From NCBI RefSeq assembly GCF_018420025.1, contig NZ_JAEDAM010000011.1, positions 1 through 19,632 of the forward strand: a stretch of DNA of 19,632 nt, read 5' to 3'. How positions within the stretch are numbered: the stretch's first letter is position 1; every line of letters starts with the position of its first letter. Both the position numbers and the translations under genes were made by a program. The notes under the pieces are model-generated. The model did no database searches. It saw nothing but the letters and a program-made list of their open reading frames with translations, and was not told the origin of the DNA. This document shows positions 298 to 19,138 of this stretch, one piece after another. The stretch comes from Candidatus Vampirococcus lugosii. GTDB lineage: Bacteria > Patescibacteriota > Gracilibacteria > Absconditabacterales > Absconditicoccaceae.

Positions 298-969
298 TTA
301 TTTTTCTTTAAATTTATCCTGACATACTCATTTTAGATTATTATGAATAATATTTTTACAATCTTCAATATTTTTGGCATGCTCAATCCAGTATCTGGAT
401 ATACAAAATTCTGAATTCACTTTATCTTCTATTTCATTACAAATTTCATAATTAGATTCATCGATAGCTTGTGAAGTATACAAATCACTTTCATAAATTC
501 TATTACAATTATTAGCATCATATATATCATCTAATTTAAGATTCTCTCATGCACATCAATTATGCTCTAATGAAATTTTTAAATTTTCATTATCAAAATG
601 CATATAATCATATATTAAAAAGCGAGATAAGTCATCATACATTTCCCAATCTTTACATCTTTTTGTGTCACTAGGTCTATCAAAATTTGAACAATTTTTA
701 TCTAATTTAATATAAGCTCAGCTATAAACTTCATTACATTTAATAACAAATTTTTGTAAACTTTCATAATTCATATCAACATTCTCTATCTTATCATAAC
801 ATCAATTGTCCATCAATTCTTTTTTGATAAAATTTGAATCAATTTTATCTATATCATACTCAAAAGATAATTTTTCTTTTTGCTTCAAAGGAAAAATTAA
901 AAAAGCAAGAATTAGTAATAATAATAATCAAACAGATACAAAAAAATATTTTTTATTATAAATAGACAT
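298..969 (-). CDS. hypothetical secreted or membrane-anchored protein, 223 aa, 10 Cys
   Basis: ATG 969..967, TAA 300..298. Checked triplet by triplet: no TAA/TAG, 6 in-frame TGA. The N-terminus MSIYNKKYFFVSVGLLLLLILAFLIFPLKQ is a basic stretch plus a hydrophobic helix (signal peptide or anchor). The remainder is acidic with 10 spaced Cys. No family recognised. Confidence 0.7.
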
Positions 970-995
970 TTTAAATTCTAACAAATTAAAATAAA

Positions 996-1829
996 CTAAC
1001 AAGATGGATTAGGATTTGGGCTTGCTGCATTAGGAGTAGTAGTTTCCCAACAACCTCCACTAGCATTACATCCTCTATCTATTCTAGTAGTATTAACACA
1101 ATCAGTATCAGAAACAGTCCGATTATTAGTACAAGTATCACATGTTGTTGAACAAGTCTCATTACCATCATCGTCTGTAGAACAAGATTCTGAGCAATTA
1201 CAAGAATAATTACTACTACATGATTTACTACGAGTTTCACATTGATTATTTGTCCGAGATGTAGAAGGTCAACAATATTCTGAATCAAAAACTTCATGAT
1301 TACATGATCAACCTCTACATCTATCTCTCATGTGCTGAAATGTAAGTCAACTACATTGCCGATAGTCAGGCTCATTACAAGCTTCTACTTCAGTAAAGTC
1401 AAAAGATTCACAAGCTCATTCCATACATCTCCATTCTTCCCGTCAAGCATATCAATTCCAAGGTGCTCCAGAAGTTATACTAGCAAAAGTTCAATTTGTA
1501 GAACAAGTTCTATTTTCAAAATCTTCACAAGATTTAAATTCTCAATCTGGTTCTCAATCATCATTTGCTTTCCATTCCCAAAGTAATTTATTATCATTAT
1601 GAGCTCATCTATTATTTACTACATTAGAATCAAAAGACTTTGTAAATATTTTTGCATCTAATCATCTTGTAAAATGAGGTAGATCAGAATTAGTTTCTGA
1701 CATTTTTACTTGTCATCATGGAGATACACATTGATCTTCAAATTCATAAAAAGAACATTCAATAGCATTTGTATACGAATACAATCAATAAAAAGACATT
1801 AATCAAAATAATAATATATATTTTTTCAT
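996..1829 (-). CDS. hypothetical secreted cysteine-rich protein, 277 aa (about 23 Cys)
   Basis: ATG 1829..1827, TAG 998..996, no in-frame TAA/TAG (checked). The N-terminus MKKYILLFGLMSFYGLYSYTNA/IECS looks like a Sec signal peptide. The C-terminal third is a Cys/Ser/Thr-rich tract (..CETRSKSCSSNYSCNCSESCSTDDDGNETCSTTCDTCTNN..GCNASGGCWETTTPNAASPNPNPSC) and is visibly more GC-rich than its surroundings. Track ORFs 1079..1297(-) and 1332..1586(+) are out of frame or antisense. Confidence 0.75.
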
Positions 1830-1998
1830 TTTTATTTTAAATATAATTAAATTAAAACAATCTTAAAACTATAAAATAATAAACAAATTAAATAAAAAGT
1901 CAAATATTTTATATAACTTTATTGTAATTATATTATTAATATTTTTTTTTAATTTGCAATACATTTTTTACTTTTTTTTAAAATAAACTATATATTTT

Positions 1999-2026
1999 TT
2001 GACAAATTATATATTTTATATATACT
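1999..2026 (+). promoter_or_regulatory. candidate sigma70-type promoter for the 2060..4153 gene pair
   Basis: Perfect TTGACA at 1999-2004, a 16-nt spacer, then TATACT at 2021-2026, 33 nt upstream of ATG 2060. TATA-like hexamers are common in such AT-rich DNA, so support rests mainly on the -35 box. Confidence 0.35.
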
Positions 2027-2059
2027 TTCATAATATATAAATATAAATTATAAATTATT

Positions 2060-2341
2060 ATGAAATATAATGATATAAAAAAATGAGTTTTAAACTCAAA
2101 TATAATTCCAGATCCGTTAAAAGATAAAATATTAAAAATTAAAGATTTACCTATACAAATTTGCTCTGTATTGGAAGAAATTTTTGTTTTGGAAGCAAAA
2201 AATAATGAAATTAATAAAGATATTAAATGAAAATCAGTACAAATATTAGTTGAATATATTAAAAGTGTTGAAGAAAAATCAAATGATATTAATGAAGTAG
2301 AAAAAAAACTTGATGATGAATTAGAAAATATATTTGATTAA
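2060..2341 (+). CDS. hypothetical small acidic protein, 93 aa, probably co-transcribed with the downstream transglycosylase
   Basis: ATG 2060, TAA 2339-2341, 2 in-frame TGA, no TAA/TAG. Translation: MKYNDIKKGVLNSNIIPDPLKDKILKIKDLPIQICSVLEEIFVLEAKNNEINKDIKGKSVQILVEYIKSVEEKSNDINEVEKKLDDELENIFD. Lies 39 nt upstream of the next ATG. Shares an in-frame 22-nt identity (KKLDDEL) with the next gene. Confidence 0.6.
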
Positions 2342-2380
2342 ATACAATAAATATTTTATATATTAATTAAAAATAAAAAT

Positions 2381-4153
2381 ATGATCAATAATATAGATAA
2401 TAGAGATATAAATACACAAGAAGATCCAGAAAAAGTTTGACAACCACAATTAGATAATTTTGAAAAAAATCAAGATATTGAAAAAGTAGTTTCTGAATTG
2501 AAAGAAGAATTTAGAAATCTTGCTGAATCTTTGGATACATGAGATGAATGAGAGTCAATAAATTTTTATGTAGATAGAATGAATAGTTATTTGAATGAAA
2601 ATTATAATTGAATAAAAATTGTAATAGATGAAGATTGAAATTTAGAAGTTAAAAATCATGAAGCAGATGAACTTTTAAAAAAACTTGATGATGAATTACA
2701 ATCATTATATTTGGATATAGAAGAATCAATTGATTCTTGAAATGATTTGTTGGATGATCAAGAATTTGCTTGAAAATCTTCATGAGAACTTTTGCAAATG
2801 TCAAATCAAAATAATTCATTATTATATAATAATATAATAAAAGAAAGTGAAGATTGAAGTTTAAATGTTGATTTTAGATGAAATGAGTGAGCAGAAGATA
2901 ATATTTGATTATCAGATATCTTGGCAGAAGATGTTAAATCAGTAAAAATTACTTCTAGTGATTGACAAGTTAGTGAATGAAATAGAGTATGATTAAAATG
3001 ATGATTTTATGATGCTTGATGAAATTATTTAGCTATTTTTAGCTGAGATAAAGTAGAAATCACAGAAAAATATGAAGAACAAGAACTTGAAAAACTAAAA
3101 GAAGCAAATAGTGAAGCTATAAATTCTTTTATGGAAAGGGATGAAATAAAAGAAATGTATACTGAAAATTGAGAAGTTATAGAAGGAAAAAAAGAAGCTA
3201 TATGATTAGCTGTATCAATGGCAGAATCTTATGATCTTGATCCAAATTTATTATTATCAATTTGATTAAATGAATGAATTTTTGAATGAAATATGTGAAT
3301 AATGAATTGAGATTTACAAACTCTTGATTGACAACTTGTTATGCTTTGTAGAAATGTTCAATCAAGTTTTGTCAAATGAACATCTCAATCAAATGAAAAT
3401 TGAGATTGAATAATAAATACAGATGATATTTTGTATTGAATAAATAATGCTTGATTGAGATGATTTTGATGATCTAATTATGATTTTTTATGAAAAATTG
3501 TTGAATCATATTGGACTTTATCTTGAAAAGAATTTACAAATAATGATTTAAAATGAGTGATAGATAAATACAAAAATTCAAATATAAATTTTTCTAGTAT
3601 AAATCCAGAAAATTTAACAATGTGAAATTTAGATATTAATTTACCTAATTTTGAATCATTATTAACTACTCAATGATGAAGAGATTATATGATGTATAAA
3701 GATAGTATAGAACAAATGTGTGATAAACTTAAAATTCCTCCAGAAGTTTTATTGCAATTATTTATAAAAGAATGAAGTCGTTGAAATCCTCATGCATCTC
3801 CTTGAACATCTAGTGCAGTTTGACTTTGACAAATAATAGATTGAACTTGGGAAGGTATTACTAAATCATGATGAACAGCATCAAAATATGGTATTGATTG
3901 AATAAAATTTGATAGATATGATGCAGGACATCAAATAATATGATCGGCAGTTTATCTTAGAGAAATGTATGATAAATTTTGAAGTTGGTGAAAAGCTATG
4001 GTACATTATCATACATGACCTTGACAAATGACAGATTCATATGCACAAAAATGTGCAAAATGGAATCCAGCTATTGAAAGATGAATATCATGACCAATCA
4101 CAGCTCAATCATATTACAATTCTGCAATGAAATATTATACAAATGTTGTTTAA
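2381..4153 (+). CDS. lytic transglycosylase (SLT/GH23 domain) protein, 590 aa, long acidic Gly-rich N-terminal region, no visible signal peptide
   Basis: ATG 2381, TAA 4151-4153. The whole frame was read by hand with no TAA/TAG and dozens of TGA. The C-terminal domain carries the GH23 signature LFIKE(3770-3772)GSRGNPHASPGTSSAVGLGQII...YHTGPG, and the invariant G of A-x-G-L-x-Q is a TGA (3821-3823). The N-terminus MINNIDNRDINTQEDPEKVGQPQ is hydrophilic. Confidence 0.85.
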
Positions 4154-4442: not shown

Positions 4443-7400
4443 TTATTATACAAATTTTGTAAATGTATCAGGTTTTTCTGAGTTTTTTTTATTATTTCAA
4501 TAATTATTTTTTAAATAAGATATTTCTAATACTTTTCAAATTTCAAAATCAATCATAGCAATTCATTTATCTCATAAAACTTTTCAAGTATCATCAAAAT
4601 TATTAATTTTTCAAATTTTTAAATCTCATATAGTATATATAACTTCTCAAGTTTTGGAATTAATTTTTGCAATTCAAGTTTCTCATACAATTTTTCAATT
4701 AGAACTAAAATTATTAATATTTCAAATATCTAAATATCAAGTATTATAAATAATTTCTCAAGTTTCAATATCAATTTTGGAAATTCAGTTTTCTCATATA
4801 ATATTTCAATCATAACTAAAATTATTGATTTTTCAGATTCATAAGTTTCAAGTATTATATTTAACTTTTAAAGTTTTTTTATCTATCATACTAATTCAAT
4901 TTTCTCATTTAATTAATCATTTGTCATAGAATTTATTAATTTTTCAAATTCATAAATCTAATGTACTATAAATAATCTCTCAAGTTTCAAAATCAATTTT
5001 TGCAATTCAATTTTCTCATATAACTCATCAATTTGAATAGAATTTATTAATTTTTCAAATTCATAATTCTAAAATACTATAAATAATTTCTCAAGTTTCA
5101 ACATTAATTTTTGCAATTCAAGTTTCTCATATAATTTTTCAATCATTATCAAAATTATTAATATTTCAAATACCTAAATCTCAAGTATTATATTTAATTT
5201 TTAAATTTTTTGTATTAATTTTTGCAATTCAAGTTTCTCATATAACTTTTCAATCATTATCAAAATTATTAATTTTTCAAATTCATAAATCTCAAGTAGT
5301 GTGTTTAACTTTTAAAGTTTTTGTATCAATTATTGTAATTCAAGTTTCTCATATAATATTTCAATTGTTATCAAATTTATTAACTTTTCAAATTTTCAAA
5401 TTTCATGTACTAGACTTAATTTCTCAAGTTTGAATATCAATTATTGTAAATCAAGTTTCTCATACAATTCATCAACTTGAATAGAAACTATTAATTTTTC
5501 AAATTCATAAATTTGGAATAGTATAAATAGTTTCTCAAGTTTTGATATTAATTTTTGCAATTCAAGTTTTTCATATAATTCTTCAATCATTGCTAAAATT
5601 ATCAATTTTTCAAATATCTAAATCTCAAGTATTATAAATAATATCTAATGTTTTGACATTAATTTTTGCAATTCAAGTTTCTCATTTAATTTTTCAATCA
5701 ATATCAAAATTAATAATTTTTCAAATACCTAAATCTCAAGTATTATAAATAATATCTAAAGTTTTTGTATTAATTATAGCAATTCAAGTTTCTCATATAA
5801 CTTTTCAATTAGCATCAAAATCAATAATTTTTCAAATTCATAAATTTGAAGTAGTAGATTCAATTTGTCAAGTTTTAGTATTTATAACTGCAAATCAATT
5901 TTCTCATTCAATTCATCAAGTTCAATAAAATCATTTAATTTTTCAAATACCTAAATCTCATTTATTATAATTAATTTTTCAAGTTTCAATATTAATTTGA
6001 GCAACTCAAGTTTCTCATATTATTTTTCAAGCATTATTAAAATCATTAATTTTTCAAATACCTAAATCTCAAGTAGTATATTTAACTTTTGAAGTTATTA
6101 AATTAAGTAAAGCAACTCATTTTTCTCATATTATTTTTCAATCATTACTGACATTAAGAATTTTTCAAATAACTAAATCTCAAGTATTATATTTAATATC
6201 TAAAGTTTTTGTATCAACTATAGTAAATCAATTTTCTCATATAATTTGTCAATCTGATATAATTTTTCAATCAAAAATAAAATCAATAATTTTTCATATT
6301 CATAAATTTCAAGTATTAGCTATAATTTTTCAAGTTTGAATATTAATTATTGCAATTCAAGTTTCTCATACAATTCATCAATTTCAATAAAAATCATTAA
6401 TTTTTCAAATACCTAAATTTCATTTATTATAAAGAATTTTTCAAGTTCCAACATTAATTTTTGCAATTCAAGTTTCTCATATAATATTTCAATCATAATT
6501 AAAACTAATAATTTTTCATATTTCTAAATCTCATATAGTATAAAAGATTTTTCAAGTTTCAATATTAATTTTTGCAATTCAGTTTTCTCATATAATATTT
6601 CAATCATAATTAAAATTACTAATTTTTCAAACACCTAAATCTCAGGTAGTATAAATAACTTTTCAGTTTTTGACATTAATTTTTGCAATTCAATTTTCTC
6701 ATATAATTTTTCATTTATTATTAAAATTAATAATTTTTCAAATACCTAAATCTCAAGTATTAGATTTAATTTTTCAAGTTTTGACATCAATTATTGCAAT
6801 TCAATTTTTTCATACAATTCATCAAGTTCAATAAAAAGATTCAATATTTCAAATACCTAAATCTCAAATATTATATTTAATTTCTCAAGTTTTGACATTA
6901 ATTTTTGCAACTCAATTTTCTCATTTAATTAATCAATCATTATCAAAATTACTAATATTTCAAATACCTAAATCTCAAGTATTATATTTAATTTCTAAAT
7001 TTTTAACATTAATTTTTGCAAGTCAATTTTCTCATTTAATTAATCAAGTATCATCAAAATTAATAATATTTCAAATACCTAAATTTCAAGTATTATATTT
7101 AATTTTTCAAGTTTGAATATCAATTATTGCAAGTCAATTTTTTCATAAAATTCATCAACTTGAATAAAATCATTTAATATTTCAAATACCTAAATCTCAA
7201 ATATTATATTTAATTTCTCAAGTTTTAAAATTAATTTTTGCAACTCAATTTTTTCATATAATTTTTCAATCATCATCAAAATTAATAATATTTCAAATAT
7301 CTAAATTTCAAATACTATAATCAACTTCTCAAGTCTCAAAATTAATTTTTGCAATTCAATTTTCTCATATAATTTTTCAATTTTTATCAAAATCAATAAT

Positions 7401-8573
7401 ATTTCAAATATCTAAATTTCAAATACTATAATCAACTTCTCAAGTTTCAAAATCAATTTTGGCAATTCAAGATTCTCATAAGATATTTCAATTTTTATCA
7501 AAATCAATAATATTTCAAATATCTAAATCCGAAGTAGTATAATCAACTTCTCAAGTTTCAAAATCAATTTTGGCAATTCAAGATTCTCATAAAATATTTC
7601 AATCATTATCAAGATTAATTATTTTTCAAATATCTAAATCTCAAGTAGTATAATCAACTTCTCAAGTTTCAAAATCAATTTTGGCAATTCAAAATTTTCA
7701 TAAAATATTTCAGTCAGATTCAAGATTAATTATTTTTCAAATATCTAAATTTCAAGTGGTATAAATAATATCTCAAGTTTCAATATTAATTTTGGCAATT
7801 CAAGATTCTCATAAAATATTTCAATCAGATTCAAAATTAATTATTTTTCAAATATCTAAATTTCAAGTAGTATAAATAATATCTCAAGTTTCAATATTAA
7901 TTTTGGCAACTCAAGATTCTCATAAAATATTTCAACCAGATTCAAATCTATCAACTTTTCAAATATCTAAATTTCAAGTACTATAATTAACTTTTCAAGT
8001 TTCAATATTAATTTTTATAATTCAATTTTCTCATATAATTTTTCAATTAGTTTCAAATTTATTAACTTTTCAAATACTTAAATTTTGAATTATATTTATA
8101 GTTCATTTCAATTTATTAACATATATTATATGTCCAGATTCAGATTCCCATAAATTTTCACAAATTTTATTTAATTTTCAATATTTTTTTTGTAGTTCTA
8201 TATTGGATATTTCATTGTTTGGATCTAACTTTAAAACTCCCAAAATTTTATTAGTGATACTATTATATCAAATATCGCTTAAAAGTTTTTTTAAGAAATT
8301 AGAACTATTTTTATCAACTTTTTTTCTTAATTTTCTCAAAAATGTTTTTGCTTTAGCTTGAAACAGAGGTAAACTAAATAAATCTTTTAATTTTTTTTTT
8401 CATTTATCATCTATATTTGAACTCATTTGAAATAATGAAATAATATTTTCAATTTCTTTATCATCTTTTCATATATCTTTCAATACAATTCATAATCATG
8501 TCGCAAAATCATCACTTACAAAAACTTCATCTAAATCAGAACAATCTTGACTAATTTCATAGTTATCTATCAT
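4443..8573 (-). CDS. giant tandem-repeat protein, 1376 aa: unique N-terminal region of about 160 aa, then 32 x 37-aa glycine-periodic repeats, then a short tail; possible beta-solenoid; unknown function
   Basis: ATG 8573..8571 is preceded by an in-frame stop at 8577-8579; TAA at 4445..4443. All triplets with low coordinate = 0 mod 3 across 4.1 kb were checked and contain no TAA/TAG. By hand count there are about 205 in-frame TGA. N-terminus: MIDNYEISQDCSDLDEVFVSDDFATGLGIVLKDIGKDDKEIENIISLFQ... (no signal peptide or TM helix). Repeat consensus: G-K-I-I-N-F-(D/E)-x-(D/N)-G-(N/K)-I-(L/I)-G-E-x-G-I-A-K-I-(N/D)-(F/I)-E-T-G-(E/D)-(V/I)-x-Y-x-x-G-x-L-x-I. C-terminus: ...IAMIDFEIGKVLEISYLKNNYGNNKKNSEKPDTFTKFV. 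Confidence 0.85.
4520..8100. repeat. 32-copy tandem array, unit 111 bp (one unit is 129 bp), lying entirely inside the 4443..8573 CDS
   Basis: The (c/t)tcat landmark occurs at 4571, 4682, 4793 ... 7919, 8030. That gives 30 intervals of exactly 111 bp and one of 129 bp (6236 to 6365). Every interval is a multiple of 3. Units are diverged at scattered positions, except for a nearly uniform block at about 7364-8030. Confidence 0.95.
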
Positions 8574-8618
8574 TATTTAAATATTTTGATTAAAAAATTA
8601 AATTAAATTTAACATTAT

Positions 8619-8648
8619 GTTATATATATAAAAATATATATTTGTCAA
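8619..8648 (-). promoter_or_regulatory. candidate promoter for the giant repeat gene
   Basis: Minus-strand TTGACA at 8648..8643. TATATA/TATAAC-like -10 candidates lie 16-18 nt downstream (about 8626..8619), roughly 45 nt before ATG 8573. The -10 is not distinctive in this A/T background. Confidence 0.3.
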
Positions 8649-8934
8649 TAAAAAAAAACTTTTTTTTATCTCATACTTGTATGACTAAAATTTGTAAACA
8701 AAATTATAAACTGAAAAACATAATGTATGCCTGGTTAGAAGTAGTTGAATATATATTACTTAATTAAAAATTTTCCGAAATAGTATATTTATACTTAAAA
8801 AACAAAAAATTTCATTATAATAAAAAAATTATATTAATAATTCTATTTTTACTTTTTTACTGATATTTTAAATTTACCAGCATAAAAAATAAAAATATAC
8901 TTGAAATTTATTATAATTTTTTTATACTTCTTTA

Positions 8935-8965
8935 TATAGCACTAATATTATTTATGTGCTATAAT
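8935..8965 (+). promoter_or_regulatory. CIRCE-like inverted repeat (candidate HrcA operator) overlapping an extended -10 upstream of clpB
   Basis: Perfect 8-bp arms tatagcac (8935-8942) and gtgctata (8956-8963) with a 13-nt spacer. This gives TAGCAC-N13-GTGCTA, the same core and spacing as CIRCE (TTAGCACTC-N9-GAGTGCTAA). The right arm runs into TGcTATAAT (8957-8965), 33 nt before ATG 8998. No good -35 box was seen. Confidence 0.5.
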
Positions 8966-8997
8966 ATGAAAATTTTAAATTTTAAAATAAATAAAAT

Positions 8998-11604
8998 ATG
9001 AATTTTGAAAAATATACGATAAAAGCTAGTGAAGCAGTTAATCAAGCACAAAGTAATGCAATAGAAAATAATAATAATGTAATAGATGTTTTGCATATTT
9101 TAAATTCTATGTTTGAACAAGAAGATTGATATATACCTGCTATACTTAAAAAATGAAATTTTGAAATACAAAAAATACATAATGAAATAAAACAATGAAT
9201 AAATAGTTTACCAAAAATTGAATGATGAAAATATCAAATTCAAGTTTCTTATGATTTAAATCAAGCATTTATAAATGCCGAAAAACAAGCAAATAGTTTA
9301 AATGATGAATATATTACTACTTATCATATATTTTTGGCCATATTGAAATGAAACTCAAAAGCAAATAAGGAAATATTACAAAAAGAATGAATAAATTATA
9401 AAAATATTTTGGAAATAATAAACGAAATTAAAAAATGAGATTCAGTTCAAAGTGTAGATCCAGAAACTACTATGGATTCTTTAAATAAATTTGGTAGAAA
9501 TATTACTGAACTTGCAAAAAATTGAGATTTGGATCCAGTAATTGGTAGAGAAGACGAAATAGCTAGAACTATACAAATTCTTTCTAGGAGAACAAAAAAT
9601 AATCCAGTACTTACTGGTGATCCTTGAGTTGGTAAAACTGCTATTATTGAATGAATTGCACAATTAATAATTAAATCTGAAGTTCCTGATATTTTAAAAA
9701 ATAAAACAATAATAGAACTTGATATGTCAGCTTTGATGGCATGAACTAAATATAGATGAGAATTTGAAGAAAGATTGAAAGCTATATTAAAAGAATTAAA
9801 TAAATCTAAATGACAAATAATTTTATTTATAGATGAAATACATAATATAGTATGAGCTGGTAAAACTGAATGATCTATGGATATGTGAAATATGATAAAA
9901 CCTGAACTTGCTAGAGGTAAAATTAGAGTAATATGAGCAACTACTATTAATGAATATAGAAAATATGTAGAAAAAGACCCAGCTTTGGAAAGAAGATTTC
10001 AACAAGTTCATATTGATCAACCTAGTAAAGAAGATGCATTAGCTATTCTTAGATGAATAAAAGAAAGATATGAAGCTCATCATTGAGTAAAAATTACTGA
10101 TTCTTCACTTATTTCTGCTGTTGATTTATCTGAGAAATATATTACTGATAGATTTTTGCCTGATAAAGCTATAGATTTGATAGATGAAGCTTCTGCTAGT
10201 GTAAAAATGGCTCTTACTAGTATGCCTACAGAAATTATTAAATTAAAAAAACAAATTACTCAATTAGAAATTGAAAAACAAGCAATAATAAGAGATCAAT
10301 GAAATACTAGTATAGATAATAATAGAATGCAAAAACTTGAAAAAGAATTAGCTAGTGCAAAAGAAAATTATGAAAAATTAAAAATTAATTGGGAAACAGA
10401 AAGAGAATATGTAGTTAAAGTAAAACAATTAAAAGAAGAATTACAAAAATTAGAACATCAAGCACAAATAGCAGAAAAAGAAACAAATTACAATAAAGTA
10501 GCTGAAATTAGATATTGACAAATTCCAAAATTACAAAATGAATTATCAGAAATAGAAAAAAAAGTAGAAAATTCAAAAAAAGATTCTAGTATTAAAATTA
10601 AAGATATTGTAGAACCTGAAGATCTTGCACTAATTATAAGTAAATGGACACAAATTCCTGTTTCAAAACTTGTTGAAAGTGAAAAAGAAAAATTAGCAAA
10701 TATTGAAAAAAATATATCAACAAAAGTTGTTTGACAAGATTTTGCTATATCAGCAGTTGCAAATGCTATTAGAAGATCAAGAGCTTGATTGAAAGATCCA
10801 AATAAACCAGTTTGATCATTTCTTTTTTTATGACCAACTTGAGTTGGTAAAACACAACTTGCAAAATCATTAGCTGAATTTCTTTTCAATAATGAAAAAT
10901 CTATAATAAGATTAGATATGTCAGAATATATGGAAAAACATTCTGTAAGTAAACTTATTTGATCTCCTCCAGGATATGTTGGTTATGATGAAGCTTGACA
11001 ACTTACGGAAGCGGTAAGAAGAAAACCTTATTCTATAATACTTTTTGATGAAATAGAAAAAGCTCATCCAGATGTATTTAATGTATTATTGCAATTATTG
11101 GATGATTGAATACTTACAGATAACAAATGAAAAACTGTTAATTTTAAAAATACTATAATAATTCTTACTTCAAATATAGGTTCAGATATGATAATGGAAA
11201 AACTTAGTAATTCACAAGATATACAAACAAGAAAAGAAGTTGAAAATTGAATAATGAAACAACTAACTAATTATTTTCGTCCAGAATTTATAAATAGAAT
11301 AGATGACTTAATTATTTTCAATCCTATAAATGAAGAAATGTTGAAAAATATTGTTTCTATAAATTTACAAAAAATTAATGATATGCTTTATTATGATAGA
11401 TGATTAAATCTTGATTTTGATGATGAAGTTTTAAAATATTTGGCAAAAGCTTGATGGGATCCTGCATTTGGTGCTAGACCTTTGGATAGAGCTATACAAA
11501 AAGAATTATTAAATCCATTAGCAATGTCTATTATGCAATGAAATATTAAAAATAATTCTAAAATAAAAATAAATATACAAGATTGAAAAATAAGTATAAA
11601 TTAA
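8998..11604 (+). CDS. clpB: ATP-dependent chaperone/disaggregase ClpB, 868 aa
   Basis: ATG 8998, TAA 11602-11604. The full hand translation shows Walker A1 GDPGVGKTA (9616-), Walker [14 protein letters not shown], a long coiled-coil middle domain, Walker A2 GPTGVGKT (10831-), [24 protein letters not shown] and GARPL. Track ORF 10327..10518(+) is an in-frame fragment between two TGA codons. Confidence 0.97.
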
Positions 11605-11632
11605 AATTAAATTTTATATTATTAAAAAAAAA

Positions 11633-11725: not shown

Positions 11726-13411
11726 TTATAAATTATTAACAACTAAATTCCAAAGATATCAAGCAGTATTTACTCAACTATCCATCATAGCAGTTCAATT
11801 ATAATTTCAAGCCCACACACATACTATCAATCATTTTTGTTTATTTGCACCACAAGTCCATCAATCAACAAATCTTCTTGAAGTTCATGTTTTTACAGCC
11901 CATCAAGGTACAGACATAAAACTATCTATCCCAAAAGATAAATTTCTATAAGAATTTTTTGTCAAAATATCATAAACTTCTTTTATTTGTACTTCATAAG
12001 AATCTAGAAAATCATATTCATTTATATCAAAAAATATTTTCCAAAGTTTTGCAAAATTTAATGGACTCATTTCATAAGTTCATAAACCAGCAGATAATCA
12101 TAAATTTCTTTCATTAAAAAATTCATGATTTTTTTCTAATTTATCTTTATTTTCTTTTCATACATTAATTCTTAATTTTTCAATAAAATTTATATAATTT
12201 CATACTCATACATCATTTAATAATTTTACAGTAGGAACATTTAGACTACTTCATAAAGCTTGTGCAAGTTTCACATCTCAAGCATAAGTTTGAGAAAAAT
12301 TTTTGGGTGCATAAATATTTTCTCATTCCAAAATATATTCTATAGGTTTATCTTCCAATATAGATTCTGAATTTAAATTTAATTCTTTCATAGCATACAA
12401 ATATAAAAAAGGTTTGGCAACTGATCAAGTTTGTCTCCTAGAAGTACAAGCATTTACCTGTCATGCAAATAAATCTTCATAAGATCTACAAATATTCATA
12501 GTCAAAACTTCTCAAGTATTATCCAAAACTAATATACAACAATCATTCATTCATTGCATATTTCTATATTCAAAAGTATTTTTTATGATATTATTTATCA
12601 TATTATGTAAATCTAGATCAAAGTTTTTAGAATTATTATTTTTTGAAGATTGAATATAATCTACATAATGATTTGCCAAATTATCAAAATTATGATAAAT
12701 ATCATTTGAAGACAATGGTGGCAAATTATATATATTTTTACAAATATTATCACTTACAAAATCAAGATTTGATATTTGATTACAAAGTAATTTAGATCTT
12801 TTTTTTAATTGATCAAAATTATTATTATTTAAAGGATTTGTACCAGTTTGATATATTGAAACCAAAAACAATAATTCAGACAAAAATAAATTTTCACAAT
12901 TATTATCAAAATAAACTAAACAAGCACTATTTAATCATCTTACTTGATTTGGAAATTCCAAATTATTTATATAATACAAAAATATATCTTCTTTTGAATT
13001 ATGTGTATTTAAATTTATAGCAATAAAATTTTCTTTAATTTTCTGCAAAATACTTCTATCAAAAAAAGCAGATTGCGATAATTTTATTGATTGCTGATCT
13101 ATAGTACTTGCTCATTGTCTATTTCCCAAAAATATATTTGAATGAATAGCTCTTGATATTGCTTTTATATCAATTCAAAAATGTGAATAAAATCTTTTGT
13201 CTTCTATTTCTTTTATTATTTGATTAATATTATTTGGTATACTATTATAATTTTCATAAGAAATATTTTTAATTCATTTTAATATATTTCATTTTGAATC
13301 ATATATTAAATTTTCTGTATTATCTTGCAATTCATATTCATACAAAAAATTAAATAAGAATAAAAATATAAAAAACAATACAAAAATTATAAAAGTCAAT
13401 TTTTTTTTCAT
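11726..13411 (-). CDS. pbpC: bifunctional class A penicillin-binding protein (GT51 glycosyltransferase + transpeptidase), 561 aa; PbpC-like by synteny with the upstream alpha-2-macroglobulin
   Basis: ATG 13411..13409, TAA 11728..11726, no in-frame TAA/TAG (checked). N-terminal TM anchor MKKKLTFIIFVLFFIFLFLF. GT51 motifs EDKRFYSHFGID (about 13171-13205) and RQGASTIDQQ (about 13091-13120). Transpeptidase motifs S-V-A-K (RQTGSVAKPF, about 12407-12440), S-L-N (ALGSSLNVP, about 12228-12260) and KTGT (about 11883-11899). Shorter than E. coli PbpC, with no extra C-terminal domain, so the symbol is tentative. Track ORF 12551..12883(-) is an in-frame fragment. Confidence 0.9.
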
Positions 13412-13450
13412 AAAATTAGAGATTATAAAAATAAATTCAATATTTGATCT

Positions 13451-16400
13451 CTAATTATTCAAAACTTTTCTTCAATGAACTTGAGTATCATACATTTCAA
13501 AAAATCTAGTAGGCATTATATTAAAATTACCATTAAATGAGTTTATTCATTCAAAAATTATTTCACATTCTGTTCAAGATTTTATACTATCATAATACAA
13601 GAAAAGTCTATCAAATCTTGATTCATAATGCGACGGCGAACATCTTCTTCATCATTTTATTTGAAAAGGTTCTGAATCATCAAATTTTGAAATATTTCAA
13701 AGTAATTTAATATTTGCTGGAATAAAGAATTCTACTGCAACTTGTGATGCATCTTTAGTTGTTGCAAAAGATCCTGTCAAAATTGTTCTATCACCTACAG
13801 AAGTATCTTTTTCTATTTCAAGATTTAATTCTGATAATCATTCAAGATAACTTTCCAATTCACCAAAATCATTTGGTAAATATGAAGTTTTCATATCTAT
13901 AAATAAGTTTTCATTACAATTCCATGAAGTTTCCAAATCTCATTTGGATTTATCAGATAAATCAATTTCTTGTGATATATTTTTAATTTCATCGGATAAA
14001 GTATGTTTATGAACTTCTCAATCAACTGTAATATCACAAGATATATCATCACTAGACTTAATTTTTAATATATATTTTGACAATGATGATATTATTTGCA
14101 TATTTTTTTGAGTTGACCATCACCAAATTCATTTATTAGTTCTATTTTCCAAAAAATCAGTCACTAATCATATTATTTCTTGATTATAATTTTCAAAATC
14201 ATATTCAATTAAACTTGAAAGGTATATTGATTGTAATATATCTTTTCAAATATATTTACTATATGATCTTGAATATTTTATTTTATCTAAATCTATTTGT
14301 TCAAGATATTTAACTGCTTGTTCTGAATCATTAATATTTGCAAATATTGCAAAAGCTAAGATTGCTAATCTAGGTTCATCATCAATATTGTCATCAATTA
14401 TTTGTTTAATAAGTTCAATATTAATATCTTTATTAACTAAAGTTCTATTATAAATATAATATGCATAAGCAAGTATATTATTTGATCATATTTTATCTAG
14501 AAAAGATTCTAAACTTGACATAAAACTTTTATCTACTTGATATCATAGACTTTCCAAATGAGAAAATACCGAATAAACATAACTACTTAAATATATAGTA
14601 GAACTTTCTCATGCTCTACTCCGATATCACATTCATCAATCAGATTTTTGATTTTGATATATTTTATCAGCTGTTTCCAAAAACATTTCATTGAAATCAA
14701 CAAATCATCTAGTTCATCAAACATTAACAGAATTTCATCTTACTATATTTTCTGAAATCAATCATTCTTGTCAAAGTTCCCATGCAAGCAATGAAGGATA
14801 AAGTCAACTCAACATTTGTTCTGTACATCCATAAGGATATCTTACCAAATAATCCAAAGCTTCTTCAAAAGCATTTATAGGCATATTAGACAAAGATAAA
14901 TCCATAGATAAATATTCATATTCACTTGGCATCTTGAAAATATGTTTTCATTCTTTATTTGAAGTAAAGAAAAAATCATTAATTTCAAATCATGAGGCTC
15001 TAATAGGTATTTTCCATTCTACTATATCTTTAAATTGATCATCACTAGCAGTGATAATAAACTTTACCCAATCATCTTGATATATATTATTTGGTATATA
15101 AACATCAAAATTTGTATTTATTTCAGAATCAGAATTTAATTTATTTGTTCATAAATCTACTTGTGTTCAATCTTCAAATTCCAAAAATCAAGAAACTTCA
15201 ATTTCATCAGATACATCAAAATCAGAATCTAAAACTACATTTACAGGTAATTTAATACTATCTCATAAAGTAAGAAATAAAGGCCAATTTGGATTTAACA
15301 TTATAGCTTGTTTTGTTTGAAAATATTCTCTATTTGTTCATATTTTTTGATTTTTATCATATCAAATAACATCAATCATCCAAGTTGTTAAATTATCTGG
15401 CAAATCAAAATCTAAATTTGCTTTACCATCTACAACATCTAAAGATCAAGTCCAATAAGCAGTATCTTTAAATTCTGTTCTCAAAGAAAGTATTCTAGAA
15501 ATTCAACCTCATCATCATTTTCTACCTCAAGTTGTATAAACTTTTAAACTATCAAAAAGCATTTTCATATTTGAAAAATTGGAAATGAAACTACCAACTT
15601 TATTATAAAAATATGGAATTGGTTCTTTAATAATATCATATAAATCTATCAAAGCTTTATCTACTACTGCCAAAGATACTTTTGCATTAACAGGATTTCA
15701 ATAATTATCATTAACAAAAACATCTAAAGACACATTTTCTCCAGGAGTATATAAATCTTTATTAGCTTCTACATCAATATTTAATTTAACAGCTGATTCA
15801 TCAATATTAGCTTGTGCATATCAAATCATAAATCTAGGTTCTTTTCTTTTATTTTCTCAATCTACATTATCCAAAACAACCGTTTCAGGTACAAGTTTTG
15901 ATACAGAAACATTTACATAAGGAATATATTCTTCTTTTGTAGGAATAGTTATTTTGTTTCAATCAAGAGTTTTTTCATATGTATCAAGAATTTCATTTCA
16001 TTTTTCTACTGTAATAATTACTTTTGCATCATTAATATATGGATTTACATTTATTTCTATTTCTTCATCTAGATCAAAACTTTTCCTAGGTATATTTACA
16101 TCCAAAACAATATTATTATCAATATCTCACCAATATCAATAATATGAATATCATCTATATGAATGTATTCTTTTTTGTGTTTCTCAATTTATATTTCAAT
16201 CCTCTCAATAAGAAATTGTTCTTAAAAAATATTGTCAAGAATCCGATAAATCCAAATTTATACTAAAATTTCAATCTTGATGAGATATTTCTTTTTTTTC
16301 AATTTCTTCAAATTCATATCAAGCTATATAATAATAACTTCAATCTACTCATTTTTCTTGTTTATGTCAATAATCTCTTTTGTACAAAATATATTCAAGA

Positions 16401-19138
16401 GATTCGGATTTATTATTTTTATCAATAATTTCACCTCTAACTAAATATTCATCTTCACTATAATTGTAATCTACAGATTGTCAATCTAGCCCAATTTTTA
16501 TTTCTGCTGGAATTTTTTCATAAAATGTAAGCAATCTAGATTCATCAGAGTTATTATCTGTAATATATAAATCAAATTTAATATCAAAATCATATCATCT
16601 ATTTTGTATTTCACTAAGATCCATAATTTCCAATGAAAAAGTTTCTTTATCAAGATTTTCATATGAAAAATTTCATCCATCAGTATGAATATTACCAAAA
16701 ATATGATTATAAGTATATTCTTTATCAGACCACCAATAACACCGCCAACATTTATCTTCACTAACTATTGAATAATCAAGTTCTATATCATAATTAGATA
16801 AATTTTCTCAAAAATAATATTTAGGATCAATTTGTAAATAATATTTATCAGCTTTTGAATACATATTTGTATCTACAAAATAAGTTGGTTTTTGATATTC
16901 TTGTATCTTTATATTATGAGAATAAGAAATATCATCTGTAAAAATATATTTAATAGTATAATCTCAAAGTTTAGCAGATTTAGGAATTTGAAAACTTCAA
17001 TCAAATCATCAAAATTCATCAAGACTTAAATTTTCTACTCTCTGTATTTCATTACTAGAATGTGATAAAATAGCATTAATATTTCATTCACTAACTGCTC
17101 AAGAATAAATATCGCTCACAAATCAAGCAAAATAAATTTCATCTCAAGGTTTATAAATAGCTCTATCCGTATATCAATAAGTTCTAATAATATCCATATT
17201 ACCTTTTTCTTTATCCATTCATATATCACTACTATCTACAAAAGATGTAATTCTTAAATTTTTGTACAAATCGTTTTCTCTATGATAATACCATAATCAT
17301 CAAGATTTTCTCAAAACAATAAAATTTTGATCATTTCATTTTGAAACTTTTATAAGCAAAACATCGGAATCTATTTCTGATAAATCTAATTTATATAAAG
17401 AATCTATTCATATTTCATATTTAATATTTTCAAATTTATCATCATAAACTTGTATATGTAATTCTTCCAAACTTTTTCCTGTATACATATCATAACTAAA
17501 AAGATACATCATATCTCCTGCTAATTTTACAAAATTTCAAATATCTGATCTAGTAAAATATCTACTTGATCTAAAATCTTCAAAAAATGAAATTCTATAA
17601 TGATTTAAATCACTTACTTGTGGAATAGAAACATGTTCATCATAGACTTTCCAGTATTCAAAATCATCTTTTATATATTCTACTTTTTGTATTTCAGCAT
17701 TACAATCAAGAAAATATTCTTCTATTCATGAAGATCATTTTTTTGTAAAATCAGCTTCTCATAATTCACATCATTGAATATATAAATCTAGTTTATCGTA
17801 ATTTTGAAATCACAATCTAATTTTATCTCACCAATATCAAGTTCTAGAAACTAAATTATATCTTTCTGTATACAAAGATCAAAATTTAAATCAATCAGGA
17901 ATTTCTTCTATATTAAAATCAAATTTATGAGTTGATTCATGTCAATAAATTGATTTTAATAAAATTTCTCATTTGTAATCTTGTCATGGAATTGGACGAT
18001 AATTTATAGAAATACTATTTTCTTTTACATTATAATCATAATATCAACTACCAAAAAAACTTTCTAAAGTTTGATCAAGTCAATGTCAAGTCAAATTAAA
18101 ATTTGATGAAATTTCAAATTTTAAATTTGATTCATTATTTGTAAATTCTGTTTCAAAATCTGCAACTTCAAAAGACATACTATAAGAGAAACCACTATCA
18201 TCAACCATTAATAATAAATAATCACCTGCATCATCTGTTTCAAAATCAAAACTTACATTTCAAGTTCAATATTTAAAATTAGATAACTCGTATTTTTTAA
18301 ATAATTTATTATCAATATCTTTAATATTATAAAAATCTGCCAAATCTTCTATATTATTTACTTCATCATTTCACATATAAAATCATAATTCATGAAAATT
18401 TAAATAATTTTCCAAATCAATATCTTTTTCTTCAATAACTCAAAATTGTTCCATATCTAAATCAATTTCTTCTGGTTTATCTATATATTTTACTAAATAT
18501 GCATTTTTCAAAAACTCATCTTTTTTATTAATTTTGAAAGAATCTAATTCTATATCCACCCAAAAACTTTCTCATACAGGCAAATCACTATTTATAATTT
18601 TTGTATTACTTGATAAATTCCTAGAAAAAGTTCAAAGAGATTCCGATCAATATTTCAATCAAATTTTTTCAAAATCTTTTCGCAATCAATAAAAATCTAA
18701 TTCTGATACAGTATCTATCATTTTACCACTTTGAAAAACATAATTTTTATCTTTTGCATATCAATTTCTTCACACTTCAAAAGTGTGTGGATCAGCATAT
18801 CTAAGTCAATATCATTCTTGAAAAGTTGATTCATTATCTTTAACATCATCAATTTCAATTTTCTTTCAATTGTAATATACATATATATTATCTTTTGAAT
18901 ATCTTTGTCAGAGATTTTCTTTCTCTCAATAATTAAGTTCATCTTCTGATGATAAAAGATCTTCTACTTCATCTAAATTTTTTTCCTTTTCTTCTTTATC
19001 AAGATTACTAGTATGTTTATTAATTTCATACAAATTAAATCATAAAATAACCAAACAAAAAAATCAAAATATTCATATACTTATAAATTTTATGTTTTTA
19101 ACAACATATTCTTTTATTCTATCAAAATTAAAATTCAT
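13451..19138 (-). CDS. bacterial alpha-2-macroglobulin family protein (thioester-containing protease trap), 1895 aa, N-terminal membrane anchor
   Basis: ATG 19138..19136 with an upstream in-frame stop at 19145-19147; TAG 13453..13451. All 95 sequence lines were checked in frame (low coordinate = 2 mod 3) with no TAA/TAG. Family motifs: YKPGDEIYFAGFV (about 17131-17160), LAVVDKALIDL, GGRKGGGGG..EFKDTAYW, LPDNLTTWMIDVIGY (15361-15406) and thioester PYGCTEQM. The N-terminus MNFNFDRIKEYVVKNIKFISIGIFGFFCLVILGF is a single TM helix with no canonical lipobox. Confidence 0.92.
14816..14827 (-). other. thioester motif Cys-Thr-Glu-Gln (CxEQ) of the alpha-2-macroglobulin
   Basis: Plus strand ttg ttc tgt aca reads on the minus strand as tgt aca gaa caa = C-T-E-Q, within PYGCTEQM. 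It is intact and in frame. Confidence 0.85.

Follow-up and report, generated by a model that had tools for sequence, protein, structure and literature searches.

The locus described here raises the question of whether an AT-rich tandem array of 3.6 kb is satellite DNA or the body of a gene hidden from gene callers that use translation table 11. The array lies on contig NZ_JAEDAM010000011.1 of Candidatus Vampirococcus lugosii, an epibiotic predator of Halochromatium that belongs to SR1/Absconditabacteria (Moreira et al. 2021, PMC8080830). The whole stretch analysed, hereafter the window, is the complete contig of 19,632 nucleotides, and the array falls within a minus-strand reading frame named here g6. 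An initial annotation, drawn from the letters of the DNA, had described this frame as cryptic and proposed it as a new repeat family. The results set out below lead to the conclusion that g6 is a real, lineage-restricted protein-coding gene of V. lugosii, read in genetic code 25, and that its product, judged from its sequence, is a new repeat family that falls within a class already well known, that of large scaffold proteins made of tandem repeats.

The reverse complement of positions 4443..8573 (4131 nt) holds 1375 sense codons that end in a tandem TAA TAA, and recomputation detects no internal TAA or TAG. The single open minus-strand frame reported initially is thereby borne out, its length of 1376 aa being corrected to 1375 aa plus two stop codons. 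A TAA two codons 5′ of the ATG bounds the frame upstream, so that both the start codon and the flanking stops of the initial annotation hold. By comparison, each of the five alternative frames over these positions contains 30–142 TAA/TAG codons. At the local stop frequency of 0.094 per codon, the probability that even 222 independent codons remain free of stops is ~3e-10; for the unique N-terminal extension of 166 codons, the chance of staying open at the observed stop frequency is ~1e-7. The frame includes 205 TGA codons, close to the 200 or so estimated earlier, and 15 GGN codons. Correlation of relative synonymous codon usage with the neighbouring genes was tried as a frame test and rejected, as the values obtained (0.88, 0.86 and 0.79) do not separate the frames.

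The openness of g6 depends on the reading of TGA. The genome description of V. lugosii states that UGA encodes Gly, and for gene calling the authors ran Prodigal under table 25 (PMC8080830). When TGA is read as Gly, the neighbouring open reading frames (ORFs) of g6 are exact matches to GenBank/RefSeq proteins of this organism. The 868-aa ClpB ORF, which matches Thermus thermophilus ClpB (1qvr) with E = 2e-268, provides a check of the code: 26 of its 35 aligned TGA codons stand opposite Gly and none opposite Trp, TGG being the codon found opposite Trp. Code 25 is thus confirmed in this contig. Heavy use of TGA for Gly extends across the genome (230 TGA versus 41 GGN in four neighbouring genes) and is therefore no peculiarity of g6. 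The epithet ‘cryptic' is accurate with respect to table-11 tools, to which g6 is invisible, but not with respect to the organism, which is published; because the genome authors used table 25, the gene is hidden from table-11 tools alone. Seven tested neighbours are present, with GenBank and RefSeq accessions, in a collection of 15 billion protein sequences, whereas an exact look-up of g6 in this collection finds neither the 1375-aa form nor one starting at Met50, and there is no self-hit. RefSeq numbers follow the gene order along the contig and show a gap, around WP_213348500, that sits precisely at g6. The ‘ten largest proteins' of the genome paper span 1392–4163 aa (PMC8080830); g6 falls just below the 1392-aa floor of that table and is absent from the text and supplements of the paper.

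The repeat region of g6 comprises 32 units (aa 167–1356), 31 of which are 37 aa long and one 43 aa (129 nt), flanked by a unique N-terminal domain of 166 aa and a unique tail of 19 aa, as had been noticed at the outset. Tandem Repeats Finder returns periods of 111, 129, 222 and 333 nt over 4536–8085. As units measure either 111 or 129 nt, every length difference is in frame, in agreement with the initial annotation. The sole longer unit (6171–6299), which accounts for the period of 129, results from insertion of the six residues KIISDG. The repeats had also been described as exact, which is true of their length but not of their sequence: mean pairwise identity is 77% at the nucleotide and 55% at the amino-acid level, the best pairs reach 93% (nucleotides), and unit 32 is degenerate. 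The units have the consensus IGKINNFDNDGKIIGENGIAKINIKTGKIIYNTGDLG, in which columns 2, 11, 15 and 18 are invariably Gly, always encoded by TGA, as the fixed glycines first noted had suggested; Ile1, Ile4, Phe7, Ile22 and Leu36 are conserved at 90% or more. Half-units 1–18 and 19–37 align significantly, with a score of 30 (4.1 ± 6.6 in shuffles), confirming that each unit is built from two diverged halves. Three unit types can be distinguished: A, the common ‘FDxDG...ETG' form; B, ‘FYxxGG' (units 9, 12, 16, 20, 24, 28 and 29); and C, ‘K(T/N)L' (units 10, 17, 21, 22, 25, 26 and 29). Identity between units is higher at lag 4 than at lags 2 or 3. The coordinates of these features, of the start and stop codons and of the surrounding genes are given in Table 1.

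Table 1. Coordinates, in the window, of the parts of g6 and of the neighbouring genes
Feature	Coordinates	Strand	Remarks
g2 and g3	298-1829	-	Overlapping Cys-rich genes without family match
g4 (93 aa) and g5 (590 aa)	2060-4153	+	Operon-like
g6 tandem stops TAA TAA	4443..4448	-	
g6 unique C-terminal tail	4449..4505	-	19 aa, NYGNNKKNSEKPDTFTKFV
g6 unit 32 (aa 1320-1356)	4506..4616	-	Degenerate C-terminal end; best identity to other units 69% nt
g6 units 16-31 (aa 722-1319)	4617..6410	-	Four super-repeats of four units, B-C-C-A-like, 148 aa each
g6 insertion KIISDG in unit 17	6249..6266	-	6 codons, in frame; local duplication of ‘DG-x-I-I' segment
g6 units 9-15 (aa 463-721)	6411..7187	-	Earliest ‘FYxxGG' variants, at 9 and 12
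g6 units 1-8 (aa 167-462)	7188..8075	-	All type A; neighbours up to 93% nt identical
g6 unique N-terminal domain (aa 1-166)	8076..8573	-	
g6 start codon ATG	8571..8573	-	Earliest ATG/GTG/TTG past the in-frame TAA
Candidate sigma-70-type promoter	8619..8648	-	TTGACA 8648-8643, 18-nt spacer, TATAAC 8624-8619
clpB (868 aa)	8998-11604		Divergent from g6
g9 (1895 aa, alpha-2-macroglobulin, Vamp_19_245) and g8 (561 aa, class A penicillin-binding protein)	11726-19138	-	

Whether selection maintains the frame was assessed by comparing the units with one another. The pooled unit-versus-unit ratio of nonsynonymous to synonymous differences per site (pN/pS; Nei–Gojobori NG86, code 25, all unit pairs) is 1.09. 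The initial annotation had named a value near 1 as grounds for refuting the gene; such a value is formally what is found, yet the inference from it is invalid. In a neutral simulation started from the consensus unit, with the observed base composition, matched divergence and a star tree (300 runs), pN/pS is 1.28 ± 0.14. The ratio is powerless here, with a GC content of 4% at third codon positions and one synonymous neighbour for TGA, and in view of the simulated value it was discarded as a test of selection. Other properties of the array depart strongly from the same simulation. No stop codon is observed, compared with 37 ± 5.5 per simulated array (minimum 22 in the 300 runs). Gly is kept at the four scaffold columns in 128 of 128 instances, compared with 83 of 128 simulated, and 30 nucleotide sites are invariant (1.4 simulated), 12 of which make up the four TGA codons. 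The diversity of unit columns is strongly bimodal (below 0.1 in 6 columns, above 0.6 in 14) but unimodal in the simulation. The star tree exaggerates the independence of the units, a bias that does not explain the absence of stops. We conclude that the g6 frame has been kept by selection as a rigid Gly/Ile/Phe/Leu skeleton with freely varying positions between. The ~14 variable columns, which lie at or above neutral diversity, would fit residues exposed on a surface where selection is relaxed or diversifying.

[quoted passage not shown] Inside the array, the longest exact repeat measures 55 bp, and each 77-mer occurs only once. Exact repeats of at most 55 bp allow unique placement of 125-bp reads, which makes collapse of the array in the assembly unlikely.

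The repeat region has no Cys, no Trp, about one Pro and a net charge of −26. Its hydrophobicity periodicities are mainly of 2.3–2.9 residues, as in β-strands, and crude propensities place four short strands in each unit, split by X-Gly turns; Gly, Asn and Asp are the turn residues. The β-strand character first proposed is upheld by these features, which support a description of the unit as a probable β-rich hairpin pair formed by a duplicated 18/19-residue module; the more specific β-solenoid, bactofilin-type or needle-type fold also suggested at first would be a candidate only. The first loop fits the pattern [DNSTE]-x-[DNSTE]-x-[DNSTE]-G-x-[ILV] in 19 of the 32 units (~4% by chance). These DxDxDG-like loops contain at most two acidic residues each, and the seven type B units, with Tyr at column 8, do not have the pattern. 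The N-terminal domain is acidic over aa 1–40 (net −9) and strongly basic over aa 61–100 (net +9); it has no hydrophobic segment and no match in Pfam, PHROG or PDB. No signal peptide or transmembrane (TM) helix is found in g6, in accord with the initial annotation: the maximum Kyte–Doolittle value over 19 residues is 1.17, compared with 2.4–2.9 for the membrane anchors of g2, g8 and g9. Likewise, the C-terminal tail contains no LPXTG-like motif or known anchor. Tryptic peptides with Gly at TGA positions, such as IINFESDGNILGESGIAK, would be diagnostic for the g6 product.

Database searches place g6 in no described family, as had been supposed. Neither NCBIfam (E ≤ 1) nor PADLOC yields a match, and Pfam gives none at E ≤ 0.01 and only noise at E ≤ 10 (for example SH3-C_UBE2O, a repeat-summed score). 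A profile of the 32 units finds nothing among all PDB sequences. Against 5.8 billion proteins, neither phmmer with full-length g6 nor a 16-row double-unit profile returns a relative, the latter even at E ≤ 1. Because table-11 gene callers would shatter relatives that use code 25, a direct search of DNA was made with a degenerate pattern (P69, Gly written as KGN) that matches 30 of the 32 units and no other part of the window. Across 596 Gb of species-representative genomes this pattern gives four single chance matches, and in metagenome contigs seven, all unrelated and without repeats; in viral contigs it gives none. A related-locus scan of viral contigs produced 151 pattern matches, none of which was confirmed, and tblastn of g6 is negative against plasmids and, at E ≤ 0.1, against 50,697 phage records. 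Matches to PHROGs require more caution. The top match of all four 8-unit blocks is phrog_18536, a family with no known function (E 2e-8 to 4e-3), and block 1 also matches a ‘tail protein' PHROG. Reversed, shuffled and column-permuted controls made from blocks 1 and 2 never match phrog_18536, but those that were reversed or column-permuted score as low as E = 4.5e-6 against other PHROGs. This lead is discounted because controls attain similar E-values on other families; the searches of phage and viral sequences linked nothing to the match, which is probably inflated by the repeats.

Close relatives of V. lugosii were identified through ClpB (three, with 76%, 71% and 70% identity), and their clpB loci contain neither the P69 pattern nor a 111-bp array. 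In the closest one (ENA ERZ27265998 k141_542477), the divergent gene upstream of clpB encodes a 1033-aa TrwB/VirD4-like coupling ATPase; in the other two it is small and unrelated to g6. The homologue search proposed initially thus found no relative in protein, genome, metagenome or viral scans or at the three clpB loci, and g6 is lineage-restricted as far as the data reach. The ATPase of the closest relative (6694-9795) is membrane-anchored and adjoins clpB, and 2.7 kb from its gene lies another (1497-3971) for an 824-aa protein with FapA_N, FapA β-solenoid and PilZ regions; a coupling ATPase and a FapA protein are unexpected in a non-flagellated Candidate Phyla Radiation (CPR) lineage. The FapA β-solenoid of this relative emerged as a candidate homologue of g6 from a weak tblastn signal without composition correction and was rejected (E = 0.77 with BLASTP composition correction, hhalign probability 0.4%).

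Comparison with known repeat proteins shows that g6 resembles several of them in layout and none in sequence. MORN repeats, choline/cell-wall-binding repeats, clostridial combined repetitive oligopeptides (CROPs) and YD/Rhs repeats are, like g6, built from modules of ~18–23 residues, in which a tight Gly/Asp/Asn turn joins two strands, and dozens of such modules in a row make up a long scaffold for binding; the ‘F-D-x-D-G-x-I' turn of g6 presumably recalls the ‘Y-D-x-x-G-R-L' and ‘F-D-x-x-G' of such hairpin repeats, a likeness that we take as a lead only. However, no Pfam or NCBIfam model of these β-hairpin families matches (MORN_2 at E = 0.14). RHS_repeat and YD_repeat are missing at Pfam E ≤ 10 and NCBIfam E ≤ 1, and g6 has a 19-aa tail only, where Rhs proteins have a core-end motif and a C-terminal toxin. 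For CW_binding_1 and CROPs there is no Pfam match either, and the g6 repeats, devoid of Trp and with Tyr at one conserved column only, do not show the conserved aromatics (GW, YY) of choline-binding repeats. Bactofilins, left-handed β-helices and FapA (DUF342) share with g6 a coil-sized sub-period of 18–19 residues, Gly at corners and Ile/Val-rich inward positions, and bactofilins also pair their β-helix with a short membrane-targeting N terminus. Yet bactofilin (DUF583) has no Pfam match at E ≤ 10 and a core ten times shorter than the g6 array; Hexapep is not matched and the 6.17-residue harmonic is outside the six strongest for hydrophobicity; and FapA/DUF342 gives no Pfam match, in line with the rejected solenoid above. 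The RTX β-roll differs as well, with no HemolysinCabind match and a Gly spacing in g6 of 9, 4, 3, 9, 7, 3, 2 rather than a nonapeptide. InaZ-type ice-nucleation proteins combine an N-domain of ~170 aa, a long hierarchical repeat core and a short C-terminal cap, and are located at the cell surface without a classical signal peptide. This tripartite layout is like that of g6, with no functional link implied; the repeats are unrelated (16/48-residue AGYGSTxT versus 18.5/37/148), Pfam gives no match and the host of g6 is a monoderm CPR bacterium. The giant envelope proteins of V. lugosii itself are akin to g6 in genome, size class and repeat architecture, but have predicted membrane localisation and WD40, PKD, integrin, fibronectin or DUF11 domains, neither of which is seen in g6 (PMC8080830).

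The gene stands alone in its neighbourhood: g6 is monocistronic, convergent with g4–g5 and divergent from clpB. A TTGACA-18-TATAAC sequence read by eye ~45 nt upstream of the ATG is a plausible promoter-like site with a possible role in g6 expression; it was missed by a consensus scanner because the scanner accepts a −10 hexamer only if its sixth position is T. Directly upstream of the candidate −35 element, in the g6–clpB intergenic region, lies an A9-C-T8 run (8650–8667; A8-G-T9 on the g6 strand) that may serve as an UP-like element or be prone to slippage. The start context is A/T-rich and has no Shine–Dalgarno sequence, which is uninformative since none of the nine window genes has one. 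No terminator-like site was found for g6. In codon choice, g6 favours T-ending codons more than its neighbours do (ATT:ATA 196:49 versus 171:191; ACT:ACA 76:13 versus 85:60; GTT:GTA 33:8 versus 89:81), a bias that was probably inherited from the founder unit and does not reflect independent selection.

Of the eight genes that are complete on the contig, five (g2, g3, g5, g8 and g9) act outside the membrane, and by their identities the contig is envelope-rich. The first of them, g2 (223 aa when counted from Met12), bears a TM anchor at its N terminus, and g3 (277 aa) has a signal-like N terminus and a tail rich in C-x-x-C and in Ser, Thr and Asn. The g5 protein carries a C-terminal lytic transglycosylase (SLT) domain (aa 438–552), its best matches being the PHROG ‘lytic tail fiber protein' and transglycosylase families (E 2e-9 to 9e-6) and a flagellar-assembly lytic transglycosylase; it carries neither signal peptide nor TM segment, even though the substrate lies beyond the membrane. 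Its partner g4 matches phrog_525. On the other side of g6, the transglycosylase-transpeptidase gene g8 lies 40 nt downstream of g9 on the same strand, a pairing that we take to be the yfhM-pbpC operon arrangement known from proteobacteria but found here in a monoderm CPR bacterium. At the 3′ end of clpB, a tandem repeat (2.3 copies of 38 bp; 11542–11628) extends into the short spacer between clpB and the penicillin-binding protein gene.

What such a gene product might do is suggested by the organism. Electron microscopy of V. lugosii shows a thick fibrous coat and fibre-filled gaps of 20–50 nm between cells, and the authors ascribe the fibres of coat and gaps to large repeat-bearing proteins, for which they propose a role in making the coat and in host attachment (PMC8080830). 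The reading that we favour, tentatively and as a composite that is rather less than probable when taken whole, is that g6 is an elongated all-β repeat scaffold, structural or adhesive in the fibrous envelope and exported by a non-Sec route. The product would be non-enzymatic. Its array would have grown from a hairpin-sized peptide to the 37-aa unit and then to 32 units, most recently in blocks of four, and the units (64 modules) could be stacked as an open, elongated array of β-hairpins or coils; were this a solenoid, a rise of 4.8 Å per coil of 18–19 residues would give a rod of ~30 nm. The N-terminal domain, acidic and then strongly basic, might anchor or oligomerise the array. In the epibiotic predator, the protein would have a structural or adhesive part in the fibrous envelope or in the matrix between cells, and would reach the surface by a route other than the classical Sec signal peptide, as g5 must also do.

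Several observations weigh against this reading. Since g6 carries neither signal peptide nor TM helix nor any known anchor, the cytoplasm would be its default location, and the isolated position of g6, convergent or divergent with its neighbours, makes genomic context weak evidence. The resemblance to calcium-binding loops is partial, given the few acidic residues in each. No g6 orthologue was found with which to compare conservation between species; pooled pN/pS is by itself no demonstration of selection, and the simulation that replaces it overstates how independent the units are. The envelope role is the weakest step of the reading.

Other structures may account for the same unit. Each unit might be a four-strand blade of closed β-propellers (for example four of eight blades), forming a multivalent interaction platform of the YncE/BamB type. 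Four strand-like segments per unit suit this arrangement, as does the number of units (32 = 4 × 8), the 4-unit super-repeat being possibly half a propeller; the motif ‘G-I-A-K-I-N-x-E-T-G-x-I-x-Y' moreover bears what we take to be a resemblance to PQQ/YVTN blades. Known propeller blades, however, are 40–50 aa long, longer than the 37 residues of g6, in which the D-to-A link would have only ~4 residues. V. lugosii also encodes a giant protein of 1392 aa annotated as a ‘YncE beta-propeller' (PMC8080830). With no match to PQQ, WD40, Kelch, NHL, YVTN or FG-GAP in Pfam or NCBIfam even at E ≤ 1–10, and no period of 4 or 8 in units 1–15, the propeller is doubtful. The lack of an export signal would also fit a g6 that is a cytoplasmic, bactofilin-like β-helical scaffold or cytoskeletal polymer, tethered to the inner face of the membrane by a basic amphipathic part of the N-domain and shaping the flat stacked cells. 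The +9 basic stretch fits such a tether, Asn/Asp-rich conserved columns could form ladders, and half-units of 18–19 residues match the coil length of triangular β-helices. On the other hand, bactofilin, hexapeptide and FapA models are unmatched in Pfam, the FapA solenoid comparison failed in hhalign, 6-residue periodicity is no leading harmonic, hypervariable exposed columns are odd for a housekeeping cytoskeletal protein and relatives have no orthologue; this arrangement also appears unlikely.

Two further readings concern the origin of g6. The gene may have been born de novo from an AT-rich 111-bp satellite, which became a translatable and foldable β-hairpin polymer because in code 25 TGA is no longer a stop and is the most AT-rich codon for a turn-forming residue; its product would be a species-specific fibre of the 20–50-nm matrix gluing cells and prey together, exported independently of Sec. 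We regard this scenario as distinctly unlikely. A phage origin, in which g4–g5–g6 would be a remnant or domesticated module combining a tail-fibre-like g6 with a tail lytic transglycosylase g5, possibly for binding or breaching prey, draws on the PHROG matches of g4, g5 and all four g6 blocks (including the ‘tail protein' match of block 1) and on the absence of signal peptides from g5 and g6, as in phage structural proteins. Yet the E-values of g6 are probably repeat-inflated, as the controls indicate, the g5 match is limited to the generic SLT domain, phage records and viral contigs gave nothing, and the window has no capsid, terminase, tube or integrase gene, so that such a module is improbable. 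Finally, the array could be a non-functional AT-rich 111-bp satellite that is open by chance in code 25, or an artefact of amplification or of assembly from short MDA/MALBAC reads. The pooled pN/pS, the lack of any homologue, the absence of g6 from a public collection that contains seven of its neighbours, and the whole-genome-amplified, short-read origin of the data all point in this direction. They are opposed by the absence of stops where 37 are expected, by the four TGA-Gly codons kept in 32 of 32 units, by the excess of invariant sites and by an N-terminal extension that would rarely stay open by chance. All indels are in frame, exact repeats are short relative to the reads and a chimera would break the phase across 3.6 kb; a satellite or artefact is thus very improbable.

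Nothing established is overturned by g6: CPR genomes commonly encode orphan giant repeat proteins, and the V. lugosii genome was already known to be rich in orphan giant proteins. That g6 and its neighbours are invisible to, or rejected by, table-11 pipelines is a practical warning. The prey attachment and cell–cell fibres of V. lugosii are unexplained, and about half of its proteome is without annotation. If made, the g6 protein would be among the cleanest natural cases of a large fold arising from recent in-phase amplification of a hairpin-sized peptide, with three nested levels still visible (18.5, 37 and 148 residues) and a Gly/Ile skeleton that stays fixed while exposed positions vary.

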